From: a virus
Lineage: Duplodnaviria > Heunggongvirae > Uroviricota > Caudoviricetes
Reading direction: 5' to 3' (one strand)
Length of the DNA stretch: 49,917 nucleotides
Virus record (IMG/VR): IMGVR_UViG_2718218131_000006
The notes below the pieces were generated by a model. That model was not told the DNA's origin, made no database searches, and worked only from the letters and a program-made list of their open reading frames with translations. Made by a program: the position numbers and the translations under genes. Within the stretch, counting starts at the first letter, position 1. Every line of letters begins with the position of its first letter. This document shows positions 23,387-43,424 of this stretch, in pieces.

Positions 23387-23693
23387 TCAGGCTGCCAGAT
23401 CATCGTTTCCGATGGAAGCATAATAAGCTTTTTCTGCTTCTGCCGGTGGGATATGGCCCAGCCTTTCCAGCAATCGTCGATTGTTATACCAGTCCACCCA
23501 CGTGAGTGTGGCCAGCTCCACTTCTGTCCGGTTTTTCCAGCTCTTACGGTGTATTACCTCCGCTTTGTAAAGGCCATTGATGCTCTCCGCCATCGCGTTG
23601 TCATACGAGTCACCAGTACTTCCTGTTGATGCCAGTAATCCGGCTTCCTTAAGCCGCTGTGTGTAGGCCAGCGATACATACTGAGAACCTTTA
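23387..23693 (-). pseudogene. IS629 transposase orfB, C-terminal fragment (interrupted)
   Basis: GSQYVSLAYTQRLKEAGLLASTGSTGDSYDNAMAE...WYNNRRL is the IS3-family integrase core C-terminus. Confidence 0.8.
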
Positions 23694-23830
23694 TTGCAAA
23701 ATGGCATCTGAATCGATCGCAGTTTGGCATTCGAATCGATCATGATTTGGCATCCATCTCCGATCACAGTTTGGCATCACAATCGATCACGATTTGGCAT
23801 GCTTCCGATCATTGATTGGCATCCTGCCAG
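23694..23830. repeat. Multiple terminal direct repeats of the IS21-family element (left end)
   Basis: Five copies of roughly GATCANNGTTTGGCAT at about 23-bp spacing; related copies at the right end (26250-26342). Confidence 0.75.
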
Positions 23831-23896
23831 TCACTCCGGGAATTAACTCTTTTCACCACAGTCTCCATTGCCGTGTTTAAACCAGTGGAGACGTCA

Positions 23897-25462
23897 ATGT
23901 CCAGAAAGAGAAAATCCAGGAGCACTATGGAAACCTGTTTTAAGATTCTTCAGCTCAAGTTCGACAAGAAGCTGACTAACCGTTGTATCGGACTGACGTT
24001 ACACATCAGCGCCTCAACCGTTTTTGAGGTTCTTGCCCGCTTCAAAGCCTCTTCTCTGTCATGGCCATTACCTGCTGATATATCCCATGACACGCTGGAG
24101 AAACTCATTTTTCCGCCCAAAGACACCTTTGCATCAGAGCTTGTAATGCCTGACATGTTGTACCTCGATACGGAAATGAGAAAACCAGGTGTGACGCGGC
24201 AACTGTTGTGGATGGAATACAAGGCACAGGCGGGTAACAAAGCGATGGGATACTCGCACTTCTGCCGTTGCTACCGGGAGTGGAAAAAAACGCGACGTCT
24301 CTCCATGCGCCAGGAGCATCGTGCCGGCGAAAAGCTTTTTATCGACTTCTGTGGTCCTACGGTTCCTGTTATTAATCCGGACACCGGTGAGATACGCCGC
24401 GTGGCAATCTTCGTGGCCGTAATGGGGGCGTCCAACTATACCTACGTTGAAGCGTGCGAAGGTCAGGACATGATGTCATGGTTAAATGCCCACAGCCGTT
24501 GCCTGACCTTCCTGGGCGGCGTACCGAAGCTGCTCATCCCCGATAACCTCAGAAGCGCAGTGAAAAAGGCCGATCGATATGAGCCTGTCATCAACGACAG
24601 TTATCAGGCACTGGCTGAGCACTATGGCACGGTTATCATCCCGGCCCGACCACGCAAACCTAAAGATAAACCAAAAGCAGAAAACGGCGTCCTCATCGTC
24701 GAACGATGGCTTCTTGCCCGCATCCGTAATGAAACCTTCCACACGCTCAGGGCGCTGAATGCGCGCCTTAGGGAGTTACTGACAGACATGAATAACCGGC
24801 CAATGAAGGGGTACGGCAATCAAACCCGTGCAGAACGCTTCCGCATACTGGATGCGCCAGCACTCTCTCCGCTGCCTCTGGCACCTTATGAATACACGGA
24901 ATACAAAGCTGTGAAGGTTGGCCCTGACTACCACGTTGAATATGCCCGTCACTGGTACTCCGTTCCACACGAACTGGTCGGTCAGCGTCTGTCACTGAAG
25001 GCGGGGCAGTCGGTGGTACAGCTCTGGCACAAGGGGCAGTGTGTGGCGCAACATCCGCGCAGCACACATGAATATAAACACACAACCAATCCGCTTCACA
25101 TGCCAGAGCGCCACCGGCAGCACGGGACATGGACACCGGAACGCCTGATCGAGCAGGGAAAACGTACGGGCCCGTCCACAGGCCGGGTGGTTGAATCCAT
25201 GCTGAAGGCAAAACCCCATCCGGAACTGGCTTATCGTGCAGTTCTGGGGCTGCTGGCACTTCAGAAAAAATACGGCCCGGAACGGCTGGAAAAGGCCTGT
25301 TACGTTGCCCTGCACTATAACGCCCCTGACAGACGCTTTATCGACAATCTGCTGCGTCACCATCGGGAGAACCTGGAGCTTCCATTATCCCGCCAGGGCG
25401 AACAACATCCGGCATATGCTTCAGAGCATGAAAACCTGCGTGGTCCGGGCTACTACCACTGA
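23897..25462 (+). CDS. istA: IS21-family transposase IstA
   Basis: N-terminal helix-turn-helix followed by an integrase-like catalytic core; GGAG ribosome-binding site; followed by the IstB ATPase. Confidence 0.85.
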   Translation: MSRKRKSRSTMETCFKILQLKFDKKLTNRCIGLTLHISASTVFEVLARFKASSLSWPLPADISHDTLEKLIFPPKDTFASELVMPDMLYLDTEMRKPGVTRQLLWMEYKAQAGNKAMGYSHFCRCYREWKKTRRLSMRQEHRAGEKLFIDFCGPTVPVINPDTGEIRRVAIFVAVMGASNYTYVEACEGQDMMSWLNAHSRCLTFLGGVPKLLIPDNLRSAVKKADRYEPVINDSYQALAEHYGTVIIPARPRKPKDKPKAENGVLIVERWLLARIRNETFHTLRALNARLRELLTDMNNRPMKGYGNQTRAERFRILDAPALSPLPLAPYEYTEYKAVKVGPDYHVEYARHWYSVPHELVGQRLSLKAGQSVVQLWHKGQCVAQHPRSTHEYKHTTNPLHMPERHRQHGTWTPERLIEQGKRTGPSTGRVVESMLKAKPHPELAYRAVLGLLALQKKYGPERLEKACYVALHYNAPDRRFIDNLLRHHRENLELPLSRQGEQHPAYASEHENLRGPGYYH

Positions 25463-25478
25463 CAGAAGGAACAACAGT

Positions 25479-26234
25479 ATGAGTGATAACCTGTTAAACA
25501 AACTGACCCAACTGAAACTCCCGGCGATGGCCGGGAGCCTGATACGGCAGCGGGAAACGCCTCAGACCTACGACGAACTGTCGTTCGAGGAAAGGCTGAC
25601 GCTGCTGGTTGATGACGAGCTTCTGAGCAGGGAAAACAGCCGTGTGGCACGGTTGAGAAAAAATGCCGGCCTGAAATACCAGGCAACACCGGAAGGGCTG
25701 CGCTATCCGGCCTCAAGAGGTCTGCGGGCTGAACAGATGAGAGAACTGCTGAACGGCCACTACATAACCCACAGGAAAAACCTGCTGATAACCGGTCCGA
25801 CAGGATGTGGCAAGAGCTGGATAGCCAATGCGCTGGGCGAACAGGCATGTCGACAGAAACACAGCGTCCGGTACTGTAGAACCGGGCGATTACTGGAACA
25901 ACTGGCTCAGGGACGTGTTGATGGCAGCTGGCTGAAATATCTGAAACAGTTGCAAAAAATACAGGTTCTAATCCTGGACGATCTGGGGCTGGAACAGTTA
26001 AGTAACGCCCAGTGTAATGACCTTCTGGAGCTCATAGAGGATCGTTACGGACAAAGCAGCACGATAGTGGTAAGCCAGTTCCCGGTAGATAAATGGCATG
26101 GTCTGATGGAGAACCCAACAACAGCAGATGCCATCCTGGACAGACTGGTACATAACTCACACCGGGTGGTCCTTCAGGGAGAGTCACTGAGGAAAAATCC
26201 CCCGGTAGTGGAAAGCAGCGAAAAAACGCGTTAA
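25479..26234 (+). CDS. istB: IS21-family helper ATPase IstB
   Basis: Walker A motif ITGPTGCGKSW, Walker B LILDDLG; typical IstB length. Confidence 0.88.
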   Translation: MSDNLLNKLTQLKLPAMAGSLIRQRETPQTYDELSFEERLTLLVDDELLSRENSRVARLRKNAGLKYQATPEGLRYPASRGLRAEQMRELLNGHYITHRKNLLITGPTGCGKSWIANALGEQACRQKHSVRYCRTGRLLEQLAQGRVDGSWLKYLKQLQKIQVLILDDLGLEQLSNAQCNDLLELIEDRYGQSSTIVVSQFPVDKWHGLMENPTTADAILDRLVHNSHRVVLQGESLRKNPPVVESSEKTR

Positions 26235-26341
26235 AAAGCGGTAGAAAAAGTTAAGTTCCCGGTTGATCGAATGGATGCGAATCGCTGATCGGACTTCGAT
26301 GCCAATCCGTGATCGAATAGAGCGGAATACGCACCTTTATC

Positions 26342-26923
26342 ACTGTGATGGACTGTGCCGGACGGTCGACGGGCCCATAACGCCTGCTCCAGAGCATCCA
26401 GCACGAATGTCGTTTCCATAGACGATGAGACCCGCCACCCCACGATGTATCCGGCAAACACATCAATGATGAACGCCACATAGACGCCCCCCTGCCATGT
26501 GCTGACGTAAGTAAAATCAGCCACCCACAACTGGTCAGGACGTTCTGCCACAAACTGACGGTTTACGCGGTCGCCTGCGGCAACGGCTTTCCGGCTGACG
26601 GTAGTGCGGACCTTTTTACCCCGGAGAACACCGGCAAGTCCCATAACCGCCATGAGGCGCGCCACTGTACATCTGGCTACCCTGATTCCTTCCCGTAACA
26701 ACTGACGCCAGACTTTACGCACACCGTATACCTGATGATTCCCATCGTATACGCGCAGTATCTCTTTCTTCAGCCAGTCATCGCGCTGCGCACGGGCACT
26801 GCGTTTATCAGGATGATGTCGCTGTTGCTGACAGTGGTAATACGTTGACGGGGCAATATGTAGTTCACTGCATACCGGTCCGACCCCGTACAGCTTACGC
26901 AGCTTATCCAGCAGTGGCATCAC
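26342..26923 (-). pseudogene. IS629 transposase orfB, N-terminal fragment (interrupted)
   Basis: ...DQLWVADFTYVSTWQGGVYVAFIIDVFAGYIVGW...HHSDKG, then runs into IS21 end sequence. Confidence 0.8.
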
Positions 26924-27246
26924 TTTTTCCAGAGGCGGTCGAACTCCGCCTTTGCAAAATAAGCGGAAGCCTGGCGAAGGATATCGTTACTGCGGCGCAG
27001 TTCACGATTTTCACGTTCCAGCTCTTTCAGACGCTGACGTTCAGCGGTGGTGAGCCCGCCATCACCGCCTCCGGTATCCCGCTCATGCTGGCGTACCCAG
27101 ACACGCAGAGTCTCCGGTGTACAGCCAATCTTTGGGGCAATGGAACAAATTGCCGCCCACTGTGAGTCATATTCGCCCTGACTTTCCAGAACCATACGAA
27201 TCGCCCTCTGACGGACTTCGGGGGAAAAACGAGTATTTTTAGTCAT
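26920..27246 (-). CDS. IS629 OrfA (helix-turn-helix, leucine-zipper transposase subunit)
   Basis: [57 protein letters not shown] matches my memory of IS629 OrfA. Confidence 0.85.
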
Positions 27247-40421: not shown

Positions 40422-41168
40422 TCACTTCGCAATTCCTGGCTGGACGACATTCGGACGCCAGCTCTCCCAGTTAAAATTCACCCATCGCCCGCCGTTCATG
40501 GTCATGCGATCCATAATCCGCTCGCCGAGCAATGTTTTCATGGCCTCATAGTTCAGGTTTGTCAGCATCCCCACGCTGCGCATCGACGCTGTCCGGCGAT
40601 CAACAATCTGGTGCAGCACCACCTGCTCGTTTTTTGTCTCGCGCTGAATGCCAATTTCATCAAGAACCAGCAGATCCACTTGGCACAGTTCCCGCAAAAA
40701 TTTTTCGCCTGATTGCCCGTCGTCATAGCTGGCGTGTAGAGCACTCATGACATCAGCCACGGTAACCACAATCACTGTCTGGCCATCTTTCAGCAGGCGA
40801 TTCCCGATAGCCGCCGCCAGATGGTTTTTTCCGGTACCAGGTTTTCCGCTGAACGCAAAATTTGTACACCCGGTCATCAGTTCATCAGCGATAGATTTCG
40901 CCTGGTTCAACGCGTATCGCTGACCGTCGTTCTGCACCTGGTAATTCGCAAACGAGCATTTGCGGTGCAATGGCTGGATGCCAGAGCGATTCAGAATTTT
41001 TTCCACCCGCAACTGACGATTCTGACGGTTGATCTCCTCACAACGTTTCTGGCCTTCGGAAAGTTGCCACTCGCGCCACTCCGCTACCGTTTTGAATGGG
41101 GCGGTTACATGTGGCGGGGCCAGTCTGCGGATACGTTCAAGAATGCCTCCTGCCGCAATATTTTTCAT
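40422..41168 (-). CDS. DnaC-like replicative helicase loader (AAA+)
   Basis: Walker [11 protein letters not shown], Walker [10 protein letters not shown]; follows the O-like gene. Confidence 0.85.
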
Positions 41169-41174
41169 GGTCAG

Positions 41175-42140
41175 TTACCCCCTGAAGCCCGGCGGAATTT
41201 CGGTATCCGGTTCAGAAATGTGATTCACACAACGCTGTACAGGCGAACGCCCCAGACGAATAACCAGCTCATCCCATTTTTCGCGAAGCTTTGACGGGCT
41301 CATGACGTTTTTTACCCAGAAGGGATCCCGCTGCACCCGACCAAACATTTCGCAAATTTGTCTGTGAGTTCTGCCATCCAGCATCCGCATTGTGCGCACA
41401 TCATTGGCCCATGCAGCCCAGTTGGGTTCTTTCGGTCGCATGATTTCGCCATCATCGCTGGCAGCCTGCTCGTAAAGACTCACGATTCGTCCCCAGATCC
41501 ACTGCGCACACGCTAAATCTTCCTGGCTACCCCACTGGCGTTTTTTCGCACTGAACACAACCGCGTCAGGGTGTCGGGTTAAAAAATCCTGTTCAGCCGT
41601 CTGCATGTCCGGTTGCGAAGCTTCCGGACGAGAAGTGTTTTTATTCTCTGTAGTGATCTCTGTTGTATTCTCTGTAAGATCATCAGGCCATTTTGACCCG
41701 ATGACATTGTGTCGTTTTGAACCAATGGAGCGTGTCATTTTGGCCTCTTCCATCGTGTCATTTTGACCTGATGGAGCGGCGCATTTTGACCTGATGGATT
41801 CGCTCACTTTGCCACCATCTAAAAGCTCGCTCTCGTAATTAATCGTGTAAAAATTAGTCATGTCACGCTTTGATTTGTTGAGCTTTTCGCAACGCAAAAG
41901 CCCCAGCGCTTTCAGACTTGCAAATGCGCGTTTTAACGTTGACTCTGACCAGAACGGGAACTGTTCCAGCCATTGTTCTGTTGTGTTATAAATCCAGCGA
42001 ACACCATCACATTCCATGCCGGAACCGGTATCTCTCAACCAGTAATGCAGCTGCTGCAACACGATGGCTTCGTTCAGACCAATTTTCATCGCCAGCTGCG
42101 TGTTAATAACCAGTGGGCGTTCAGCAAAAAGAAGACTCAT
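41175..42140 (-). CDS. Replication initiator (O-like organiser) with origin iterons inside the coding sequence
   Basis: Position between the cro-proximal gene and the DnaC-like gene; contains an iteron array; start set at MSLLFAERP. Confidence 0.7.
   Translation of the reverse strand: MSLLFAERPLVINTQLAMKIGLNEAIVLQQLHYWLRDTGSGMECDGVRWIYNTTEQWLEQFPFWSESTLKRAFASLKALGLLRCEKLNKSKRDMTNFYTINYESELLDGGKVSESIRSKCAAPSGQNDTMEEAKMTRSIGSKRHNVIGSKWPDDLTENTTEITTENKNTSRPEASQPDMQTAEQDFLTRHPDAVVFSAKKRQWGSQEDLACAQWIWGRIVSLYEQAASDDGEIMRPKEPNWAAWANDVRTMRMLDGRTHRQICEMFGRVQRDPFWVKNVMSPSKLREKWDELVIRLGRSPVQRCVNHISEPDTEIPPGFRG
41685..41805. repeat. Putative origin iterons: 5-6 copies of about CATTTTGACCTGATGGA at 23-24 bp spacing, with an AT-rich block at 41820-41870
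   Basis: Repeats read directly, for example ccattttgacccgatg, gtcattttgacctgatggagcg, gcgcattttgacctgatggattcg. Confidence 0.65.
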
Positions 42141-42642
42141 AATTCCATCCGACTTTTTGTTGATATTGCTGACGATACGCACGCTTGAAAGCAATGGCTT
42201 TTTCTATAAGCTCGTCAGTCTCACGTTCCACAACAGCTGGATCCGCAAAAAGCAGCCCGGACTCCACCACATCGCCATATTCTTTGTTTAACCCGGCGAT
42301 CATGTACGTAATGCTTTTTCCGTCAGTAATTTCACAATACAACCTGAAATCGCTGATCCGGATAGCCTCCATAATTGCCGGAATCAGCGCCGTGAATTTT
42401 TCACGCTTATCCCTGGTGTCGATAGCTTTCCAGCGTTCGAATATCTTCACCCTGTTAACGCCCAGCGCCCGTTGATCAACCGCGCCATCATCAAACGTGA
42501 CGCGATGAACATCGATGTTCGGGCGTTCTTTCAGAGCCCAGAATGCTTCCGTGATTAATATCGTCGCCTGCTCCTGCGTCATTCCTGGTCGGCATACCCA
42601 GGCATCCAGAGCCTCGCGAGCCTGCTCAGGAGTGAATATCAT
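42121..42642 (-). CDS. Hypothetical early protein (possibly YdaT/cII-like)
   Basis: 173-aa ORF between the cro-like and O-like genes; family assignment is a guess. Confidence 0.5.
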   Translation of the reverse strand: MIFTPEQAREALDAWVCRPGMTQEQATILITEAFWALKERPNIDVHRVTFDDGAVDQRALGVNRVKIFERWKAIDTRDKREKFTALIPAIMEAIRISDFRLYCEITDGKSITYMIAGLNKEYGDVVESGLLFADPAVVERETDELIEKAIAFKRAYRQQYQQKVGWNYESSFC

Positions 42643-42901
42643 TGTTCACCGCCAGTGATTCATTCGACATACACTTATTTTCACAAGGTAGTCCATCTGT
42701 TGGGTTGGGATAAATGTCAGGGCGAAGTTCGTGGGGAGTAATTTCCCAATTCAGTAATGCACAGAGTGACGACACGCGTTCAGCAGGAACCTTGCCTTTA
42801 ATGAACCACTTGCCTACGGCCTGGGAGCTAATGCCAAAGTGTTTGCCAATGTCAGTTTTCGACATTTTTTTAGAGATCTTATCGTGAATTTGATTACTCA
42901 T
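42626..42901 (-). CDS. Cro/DicC-like small helix-turn-helix regulator
   Basis: Divergent from the repressor; MSKTDIGKHFGISSQAVGKWF resembles the DicC/YdaS N-terminus; start could be 42864. Confidence 0.6.
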   Translation of the reverse strand: MSNQIHDKISKKMSKTDIGKHFGISSQAVGKWFIKGKVPAERVSSLCALLNWEITPHELRPDIYPNPTDGLPCENKCMSNESLAVNNDIHS

Positions 42902-42939
42902 ACTTTCCACCAGTACTATTAATTTCACCTACGCTACCA

Positions 42940-42980
42940 TCAAAAACTATAAGTTTCAACACAAAACCTATAGTTTTGCT
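42940..42980. promoter_or_regulatory. Two near-palindromic operator-like sites (AAAACYATAGTTTT type) between the divergent cro-like and repressor genes
   Basis: aaaaactataagttt (42942-42957) and aaaacctatagtttt (42963-42977); TATACT -10-like hexamer at 42991. Confidence 0.5.
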
Positions 42981-43013
42981 GATTGGTGAAACCTTTGGTT
43001 GTATACTTAAAAA

Positions 43014-43424
43014 ATGAGTAAAATAAACCATCCAATATTTGCTGAGAGAGTTCGGCAAGCAATGAGCGAACATGGCTGGTCGTTAGCCGGTCTGGCTAAA
43101 AAGGTTATGCTGTCCCATACCGCTGTGCGTAAGTGGGCAACAGGAGAAACCATTGCCAGCGGAGAAAGATTAAAAAGACTTGCCGCGGTAACAGGAAAAC
43201 CAGAACATTGGTTTTTTATGCCGCTAAATGAACATTCAAAGGAAGAAGATGCACCACCACTAATCCAGCTTGACGACAAAGAAAAGGCGCTATTGTCCCT
43301 TTTTAATCAGTTGCCAGAAACGGAAAAGCTGAGACTAATCATGCACACAAAAAGCATTCTTCATGAAATGGATCTTCTAAAAAACGATGTATACGACATA
43401 ATCAATGATATTCAAAAACAATAA
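43014..43424 (+). CDS. Prophage repressor (DicA/cI-like, XRE helix-turn-helix)
   Basis: N-terminal helix-turn-helix AERVRQAMSEHGWSLAGLAKKVMLSHTAVRKW; KALLSLFNQLPETEK resembles DicA. Confidence 0.75.
   Translation: MSKINHPIFAERVRQAMSEHGWSLAGLAKKVMLSHTAVRKWATGETIASGERLKRLAAVTGKPEHWFFMPLNEHSKEEDAPPLIQLDDKEKALLSLFNQLPETEKLRLIMHTKSILHEMDLLKNDVYDIINDIQKQ

Follow-up and report, generated by a model that had tools for sequence, protein, structure and literature searches.

We analysed a 49,917-nucleotide stretch of viral DNA (IMG/VR record IMGVR_UViG_2718218131_000006; hereafter the window), which comprises most of a lambdoid prophage. Its minus strand carries lambda-like terminase, portal, tape-measure and J genes, a RecE-like exonuclease gene lies on the plus strand, and the immunity region is found at approximately 42.6-43.4 kb. 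The nearest public match to the window is E. coli O80:H26 EC-107 (99.4%). Our subject is a set of repeats in the middle of the replication initiator gene of this prophage. The gene occupies 41175-42140 on the minus strand and encodes 321 amino acids from an ATG at 42140, as given in the list of open reading frames; the 966-nucleotide coding sequence is annotated likewise in relatives. The encoded protein is laid out as an N-terminal winged-helix domain, a linker encoded by the putative origin, a lambda-O-type C-terminal domain and a DnaT-like tail. On the evidence set out below, we judge it about 85% probable that 41586-41825 is the vegetative (theta-type) replication origin of the prophage, embedded midway in its initiator gene.

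A 23-bp iteron array inside the initiator gene

Repeat alignment and Tandem Repeats Finder identified an array of six abutting 23-bp units at 41681-41819 on the minus strand. In gene order the units lie at 41819-41797, 41796-41774, 41773-41751, 41750-41728, 41727-41705 and 41703-41681; read on the plus strand they start at 41681, 41705, 41728, 41751, 41774 and 41797, with spacings of 24, 23, 23, 23 and 23 bp. Tandem Repeats Finder reported periods of 23 and 46 at this place. In gene orientation the ideal unit is CATCAGGTCA-AAA-TGACCTGATG, a near-palindrome whose 10-bp inverted arms converge on an A-tract. Units 3 and 6 depart from the ideal palindrome at 2 positions and have 8 of 10 complementary arm positions, units 2, 4 and 5 depart from it at 5-8 positions, and unit 1 at 10. 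Exact copies of the 17-mer CATTTTGACCTGATGGA stand at two places only, 41759 and 41782. The regularity far exceeds what chance would give. Self-identity at a lag of 23 across 41705-41796 is 61/92, the top lag-23 value in the 49.9-kb window (window-wide mean 23.1, standard deviation 4.5), and no match to the core with up to one mismatch was found in the window outside the array. An earlier note on this DNA, made from the sequence alone, had reported five to six copies of the 17-mer motif at a spacing of 23-24 bp and placed an origin within the initiator gene. The repeats are borne out as six units, 'five to six' being a fair count because unit quality varies, and the array has the properties of a phage-origin iteron set.

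The units span nucleotides 322-460 of the gene. Because 23 is not a multiple of 3, they are read in all three frames (0, 2, 1, 0, 2 and 2, respectively).

Selection acts on the DNA of the array

For a sliding 10-codon analysis of third-codon-position diversity we drew on IMG/VR, genome contigs, phage mEp460 and EC-107, which together gave 57 unique sequences closely related to the gene (55 in a first pass). In the N-terminal domain, diversity was 0.133 at third positions and 0.014 and 0.010 at positions 1 and 2; the corresponding values in the C-terminal domain were 0.181, 0.023 and 0.025. This codon periodicity vanishes in the iterons (0.023 at third positions; 0.031 and 0.047 at positions 1 and 2) and in the adjoining block of 12-mers described below (0.012; 0.000 and 0.047). 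Diversity at positions 1 and 2 is there at least as high as at third positions, because the encoded linker tolerates amino-acid changes. The zone of suppressed synonymous diversity reaches from 41586 to 41825 (gene nucleotides 316 to approximately 555), and 11 of 63 third positions vary inside it, compared with 146 of 259 outside (Fisher p = 1.8e-8). We therefore take 41586-41825 as the extent of DNA-level constraint, and hence as the functional limits of the putative origin. Selection at the array acts on the DNA and not on the peptide.

Conserved 12-mers and an inverted repeat follow the iterons

Beyond the iterons in the direction of the gene lie three tandem AT-rich 12-mers, ACAGAGAATACA, ACAGAGATCACT and ACAGAGAATAAA, at 41640-41675 on the minus strand (gene nucleotides 466-501), which encode TENT-TEIT-TENK and sit within a wider AT-rich stretch, 41636-41680. 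Tandem Repeats Finder detected a period of 12 at 41645-41676. By nearest-neighbour duplex stability, the 12-mer block is the least stable 45-bp stretch of the gene and among the lowest 1% in the window, and third-position diversity within it is 0.011-0.021. The 12-mer recurs two to five times behind the iterons of relatives from Enterobacterales, Pseudomonas, Campylobacterales, Anoxybacillus, Limosilactobacillus and Staphylococcus. Codon choice within the repeats is strongly skewed: glutamate codons are GAG rather than GAA at a ratio of 86:2, compared with 379:470 elsewhere in the genes (p = 1e-25), and 164 of 166 threonine codons are ACA or ACT. This sequence conservation suggests that the block is recognised and is not merely easy to melt, and we propose it as a DNA-unwinding or single-strand-binding element. 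The earlier note had also described an AT-rich segment after the repeats, in the lambda arrangement. Its composition and the lambda order hold, but the AT-rich block under DNA-level constraint is another one, at 41640-41680, just to the left of the coordinates given in the note and not mentioned there. Because the gene is on the minus strand, an AT-rich block that follows the repeats on the plus strand lies upstream of them in the gene, the opposite of lambda.

Directly after the 12-mers comes an inverted repeat, GTCCGG-N11-CCGGAC, at 41607-41629, the least well supported of the parts. Relatives carry GGTTGC-N3-GCAACC at this place, with the compensated variants GGTTTC/GAAACC, GGTTCC/GGAACC and GGCTCA/TGAGCC.

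The iterons follow the N-terminal domain

Across homologues, the repeats are conserved with the initiator, and the type of repeat switches where the N-terminal domain is a different one. Klebsiella phage Kp4886-3 has the same N-terminal domain, iterons, 12-mers and inverted repeat, joined to an unrelated C-terminal domain; its initiator is followed by a methylase gene, with no DnaC gene. Shigella phage VIT_AJPSC has the C-terminal domain in common with the window gene and a different N-terminal helix-turn-helix domain. At the same place it carries an intragenic array of its own (L007, 2141-2290), made up of five or six copies of a 15-bp unit, GTCAAAATCTGAC, which is followed by a TCGTCCGG...CCGGAC inverted repeat as in the window gene. 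The Rac/YdaU-like type to which the VIT_AJPSC gene belongs is labelled 'helix-turn-helix domain-containing protein' in many E. coli annotations.

Megablast break points among phages and E. coli genomes place the joint between the two halves at approximately 41641/41642, between the 12-mers and the inverted repeat. The break points of relatives that have only the N-terminal half coincide with those of relatives that have only the C-terminal half, suggesting that recombination has recurred at this joint, by the presumed unwinding site.

The association of domain and repeats reaches far beyond the enteric bacteria. Among 80 species-level genome loci sampled for deep conservation, GnnCAAAwTGnnC arrays at 22-24 bp spacing lie directly after the domain in Enterobacterales, Pseudomonas, Acinetobacter and Campylobacterales, and likewise in Staphylococcus, Anoxybacillus, Limosilactobacillus and Lachnospiraceae; the sequence of the core, GGTCAAAATGAC, recurs unchanged in a Staphylococcus phage. 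Three contigs of apparently distant origin (L090, L091 and L144), binned as metagenome-assembled genomes of Veillonella parvula, 'Bacillota bacterium' and Collinsella, carry a gene 97-98% identical to that of the E. coli prophage and are probably mis-binned Escherichia prophage contigs.

Residue 67 of the N-terminal domain tracks a base of the iteron

The N-terminal domain (residues 1-110, encoded by 41811-42140 on the minus strand) is predicted to be an iteron-binding winged helix with its recognition helix at residues 66-79. BLASTP against lambda O showed no likeness in the N-terminal 146 residues of the initiator. Pfam matched no family in 68 relatives of the domain, and RepA_N (PF06970) was absent at E values up to 1; only weak generic winged-helix matches appeared for the initiator and these relatives (PadR, HTH_36, Cdc6_C, and DnaD_N at 0.17). 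A profile search of PDB sequences with the domain likewise returned only weak PadR-type winged-helix matches. We discarded a single-sequence AlphaFold model of the full-length protein (predicted local distance difference test score (pLDDT) 40) and used an alignment-based model of the N-terminal domain (pLDDT 86). In this predicted model the fold is nearest to winged helices of the RepA_N/DnaD type, and Foldseek agrees.

At the start of the recognition helix, residue 67 immediately precedes an invariant threonine, Thr68; in the window gene it is a serine, encoded at 41940-41942. Its identity tracks the base 5' of the CAAA core together with the symmetric partner of that base. Ser67 goes with T before CAAA at 31 of 32 loci, under 16 genus-level labels, and Asp67 with G at all 17 loci (11 genus-level labels). 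Lys67 goes with A at 3 of 3 tabulated loci, under 2 genus-level labels, and at 3 further loci. Ser/T and Asp/G are both found within Citrobacter and both within Raoultella, and Asp/G and Lys/A both within Pantoea. This covariation, a strong lead, is the strongest indirect evidence that the N-terminal domain reads the iterons, and it lends support to the claim of the earlier note that the iteron sequence sets replication specificity. It offers a testable rule for that specificity, with a bearing on cross-talk between co-resident prophages.

A model for initiation and its alternatives

Along the direction of minus-strand transcription, the proposed origin would be ordered as iterons (41819-41681), 12-mers (41675-41640) and inverted repeat (41629-41607). 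The anatomy, the DNA-level constraint, the joint inheritance of iterons and N-terminal domain, the covariation, the fold of that domain and the homology of the right arm and C-terminal domain to lambda are results of the analysis; binding, unwinding at the 12-mers and helicase recruitment we infer, as follows. Dimers of the N-terminal winged-helix domain would bind each iteron, with residue 67 reading the base pair that adjoins the CAAA core. The bound and bent sites would assemble into a nucleoprotein structure comparable to the lambda O-some or the RepA_N-ori complex, and this structure would destabilise the adjoining 12-mer block. The lambda-O-type C-terminal domain would then recruit the host DnaB with the phage DnaC-like loader, the DnaT-like tail possibly helping. 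Transcription from a promoter on the cro side would cross the origin, as in lambda.

Several points weigh against this model. Among the six units, 1 and 4 are degenerate, and the inverted repeat in the window has perfect arms of only 6 bp. The diversity analysis rests on close relatives that recombine. The covariation is a lead and not proof, because the loci are not phylogenetically independent, and the role given to residue 67 depends on a predicted model. Duplex stability does not separate the AT-rich flanks of the array (-51.6 versus -52.8 kcal/mol over 45 bp). Some relatives of the N-terminal domain in Bacillus and Neobacillus have neither array nor 12-mers (L133, L137, L138, L140, L146 and others); in these the domain runs straight into a DnaD-like C-terminal region, and the domain therefore does not always carry an origin in its gene. 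We also found no DnaA box within approximately 900 bp of the array at up to one mismatch, a result that we consider neutral rather than negative. In the literature we found no experimental replication, binding or unwinding data for this origin type. Literature searches by iteron and 12-mer sequence, by mEp460 and through reviews of replication modules, in a library with little subscription-journal work, returned no description of this origin. Eru typing of Shiga toxin (Stx) phages was considered as a source and set aside: the papers contain no origin analysis, and Eru2 is a P22-like initiator with a DnaB helicase, a different module from this one.

We tentatively put forward a broader possibility, to which we give well under even odds: that these parts form an undescribed, portable origin cassette common to several bacterial phyla. 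It would combine a RepA_N/DnaD-like winged helix missed by Pfam, palindromic A-tract iterons with the residue-67 code, a specific 12-mer (ACAGAGAnTACn) and fusion at a fixed joint. The 12-mer ACAGAGAnTACn would then be a recognised single-strand or unwinding signal, and not merely AT-rich DNA, by analogy with DnaA-trios. Recombination at approximately 41641 would join interchangeable C-terminal parts, namely the lambda O C-terminal domain, DnaD-like C-terminal domains and the DnaT-like tail.

A second possibility, the reading of the earlier note, which we consider unlikely, keeps the same origin; its unwinding element would be the AT-rich block at 41820-41870, which precedes the iterons in the gene. 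The array does have two low-stability, AT-rich flanks as candidates, with a GC content of 0.30-0.35 at approximately 41820-41880 and 0.325 at 41630-41680. The GC content of 41820-41870 itself is 0.30-0.35, the block ranks second in low duplex stability among 45-bp stretches of the gene, almost level with the 12-mer flank, and some iteron origins open on either side. DNA-level constraint, however, is found only at 41636-41680. The block at 41826-41870 (minus strand) evolves as ordinary coding sequence, with a third-position diversity of 0.17-0.19 and none at positions 1 and 2. Its codons are those of the wing of the winged helix (KRDMTNFYTINYESE), and the block is AT-rich because this conserved wing (KRDMTNFYTINY) can be written only in AT-rich codons. 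We found no conserved DNA motif like the 12-mers in the block, which moreover lies on the side opposite to the lambda AT-rich tract relative to transcription. We therefore disfavour it as the unwinding site.

The array might also be no more than a regulatory binding site for the initiator, acting in autoregulation, in titration or handcuffing or as a transcriptional roadblock, with initiation elsewhere in the prophage. This we regard as very improbable. It is general knowledge that arrays of binding sites in iteron plasmids can act in copy control, and the least stable DNA nearby is the cI-cro intergenic region at 42860-43040. That region, however, is the immunity operator/promoter region, and the iteron motif has no other copy in the window, which takes in the greater part of the prophage. 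In every case the conserved 12-mers and AT-rich tract come after the array, and for lambda and pSK41 the homologous layouts have been defined as origins by experiment (PMC7466680; PMC5703833). Hardly credible at all is the notion that the repeats merely encode a repetitive stretch of linker peptide, or were left behind by slippage or recombination, and are devoid of function at the DNA level: the region does encode a low-complexity linker between two domains (SIRSK/SGQND/SIGSK) that tolerates amino-acid changes, but its 23-bp period is read in three frames, synonymous sites at the array are more conserved than non-synonymous ones, and the DNA motif is kept across phyla and covaries with a residue of the recognition helix.

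The C-terminal half of the initiator and its neighbours

The whole initiator protein matches PHROG 391, 'replication initiation O-like' (3.7e-96); no Pfam family matched it, and NCBIfam likewise assigns none. The linker and the lambda-O-type C-terminal domain are encoded by 41259-41702 on the minus strand. By BLASTP, residues 147-294 align with residues 135-270 of lambda O (36% identity over 148 amino acids, E = 3e-28), and tblastn gave 41% identity to lambda-type O genes, at residues 201-312 of a 339-residue open reading frame. The C-terminal domain is presumed to recruit the helicase and its loader. The description of the gene product as an O-like initiator, made in the earlier note, is thus accurate from about residue 147 onward and fails for the N-terminal DNA-binding domain, which is unlike that of lambda O.

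The last 21 residues (VQRCVNHISEPDTEIPPGFRG; 41178-41240, minus strand) resemble the extreme C-terminus of E. coli DnaT, with 15 of 21 identical (phmmer against PDB chains, E = 0.012-0.041; 2ru8_A, 6aep_A and 9zbt_D), and NCBIfam gave a weak DnaT match to the initiator. Database labels such as 'Primosomal protein I' probably stem from this tail. A similar ending, (I/V)P(P/A/H)GFR(G/S), is found in relatives with unrelated C-terminal domains. The tail hints at a docking peptide in common, and the order of the initiator and the DnaC-like gene parallels the dnaT-dnaC pair. No role for a DnaT-like tail was found in a 2026 preprimosome paper.

The gene directly downstream of the initiator, which stands where lambda has P, is a DnaC-like helicase-loader gene (40422-41168, minus strand), with matches to NCBIfam PRK12377 (1.4e-152) and DnaC (1.1e-91), Pfam IstB_IS21 and Bac_DnaA, and PHROG 50. 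Phage mEp460_ev081 (L001, 2559-3966) has the same initiator at 91% nucleotide identity, but its next gene is a small 'LygF' gene and not a DnaC-like loader. As neither this phage nor Kp4886-3 has a loader gene there, the origin type may work with or without a phage loader, presumably through the host DnaC. Upstream of the initiator are a cII/YdaT-like gene (42121-42642, minus strand) and a cro/YdaS-like gene (42626-42928, minus strand), followed by a divergent cI-like repressor gene (43014-43424, plus strand), all assigned from Pfam, PHROG and the annotation of relatives. With cro- and cII-like genes upstream and a cI-like gene divergent, the equivalent of the rightward operon would be transcribed through the origin. 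Promoter and terminator scans of 41100-43200 found nothing, and Rfam matched no RNA family in the initiator region.

Elsewhere in the window, a second array with a 23-bp period, at 23702-23823 (five copies of GATCAyrrTTTGGCAT), was considered as a second origin and rejected, as it belongs to an IS21-family set of terminal repeats. These are the multiple terminal repeats at the left end of an IS21-family element (IstA at 23816-25462, IstB at 25236-26234). The element is part of a nest of insertion sequences at 23387-27246, between the Nu1-like terminase gene and the late region, and it splits an IS3-family element into transposase parts at 23387-23767 and 26231-27246 (minus strand). The frameshift signal of the IS3-family element is the Rfam ALIL pseudoknot at 26849-26965 (minus strand). 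At the edge of the window, an open reading frame at 1-873 on the plus strand has five 47-amino-acid EspF repeats (Pfam PF04806, 3.7e-136), corresponding to a 141-bp tandem repeat of 4.3 copies at 253-852. The product is an EspF/TccP-like type III secretion effector, and the gene is cargo next to a side tail-fibre gene with collagen-like repeats (1271-2590, minus strand).

Prevalence in E. coli

The module at 41590-42140, made up of the N-terminal domain and the proposed origin, is present at a coverage of at least 80% in 1866 of 5426 complete E. coli genomes (about 35%), in up to four places in each. The gene is labelled mostly 'hypothetical protein' in RefSeq. With up to four modules per genome, identical origin types reside together as prophages, with no sign of exclusion; the incompatibility with co-resident prophages that the earlier note had thought possible finds no echo here. 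A defined origin and a domain map would make for better annotation of prophages and better typing of replication modules in pathogenic E. coli.

Comparison with known systems

The kind of element is well known, from lambda, RepA_N plasmids and SPP1; this particular origin, which we have not found described, is by its sequence a hybrid of RepA_N-style iterons, forming the left arm, and a lambda-style right arm. Two textbook systems meet in it: the origins of Gram-positive RepA_N plasmids, through the left arm and the binding domain, and lambda ori and O, through the right arm and the recruitment domain. The modular evolution of origins is made directly visible, down to a recombination joint at the proposed unwinding element.

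The lambdoid origin consists of iterons and an AT-rich tract in the middle of O (PMC7466680). In lambda (NC_001416) it lies at nearly the same position in the initiator gene, at nucleotides 349-433 of O compared with 322-460 here, and four iterons are followed by an AT-rich tract and then by GTCAGAG-N14-CTCTGAC, the same order as here. The two also have in common the dyad symmetry of the iterons around a CAAAA-type centre, a homologous linker and C-terminal domain, and a gene placed downstream of cro-like and cII-like genes; the Stx phages 933W and P27 have six iterons, as does the array described here. They differ in the N-terminal DNA-binding domain, which here is unrelated in sequence and has no Pfam Phage_rep_O match, and in the iterons, which are ATCCCTCAAAACGAGGGA-like and 18-19 bp long in lambda, whereas here they are abutting 23-bp CATCAGGTCAAAATGACCTGATG-like units that resemble those of lambda in the CAAAA centre alone. 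The AT-rich tract of sequence-conserved 12-mers, a partner that is DnaC/IstB-like rather than P, and the DnaT-like tail also set the present system apart from lambda.

[quoted passage not shown] Rep of pSK41 uses its N-terminal domain to bind four Rep boxes in the centre of rep, the origin encodes the central region of the protein, and the C-terminal domain is host-specific (PMC5703833). The RepA_N replicons that we compared (pSK41, pTZ2162 and Vibrio cholerae PLE RepA) resemble the present system in iteron structure, in the N-terminal winged-helix fold and in an origin that lies centrally in rep, where it encodes the linker of a protein of approximately 320 residues with a swappable C-terminal domain. 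Unlike them, the initiator described here has no Pfam PF06970 match and is carried by a lambdoid phage of Enterobacterales. Its C-terminal domain is of the lambda-O type and not the DnaG-binding type, and conserved 12-mers and an inverted repeat form the right arm of its proposed origin.

In Bacillus phage SPP1, oriL lies inside gene 38, and a similar arrangement has been proposed for ORF20 of 80alpha. As here, the SPP1 replisome organizer G38P has its binding sites and origin within its own gene, and a helicase-loader gene comes next (PMC5499656). The origin is present twice in SPP1, the other copy being oriR, whereas the window holds no second copy of the motif; the likeness that we draw between the two systems is one of layout.

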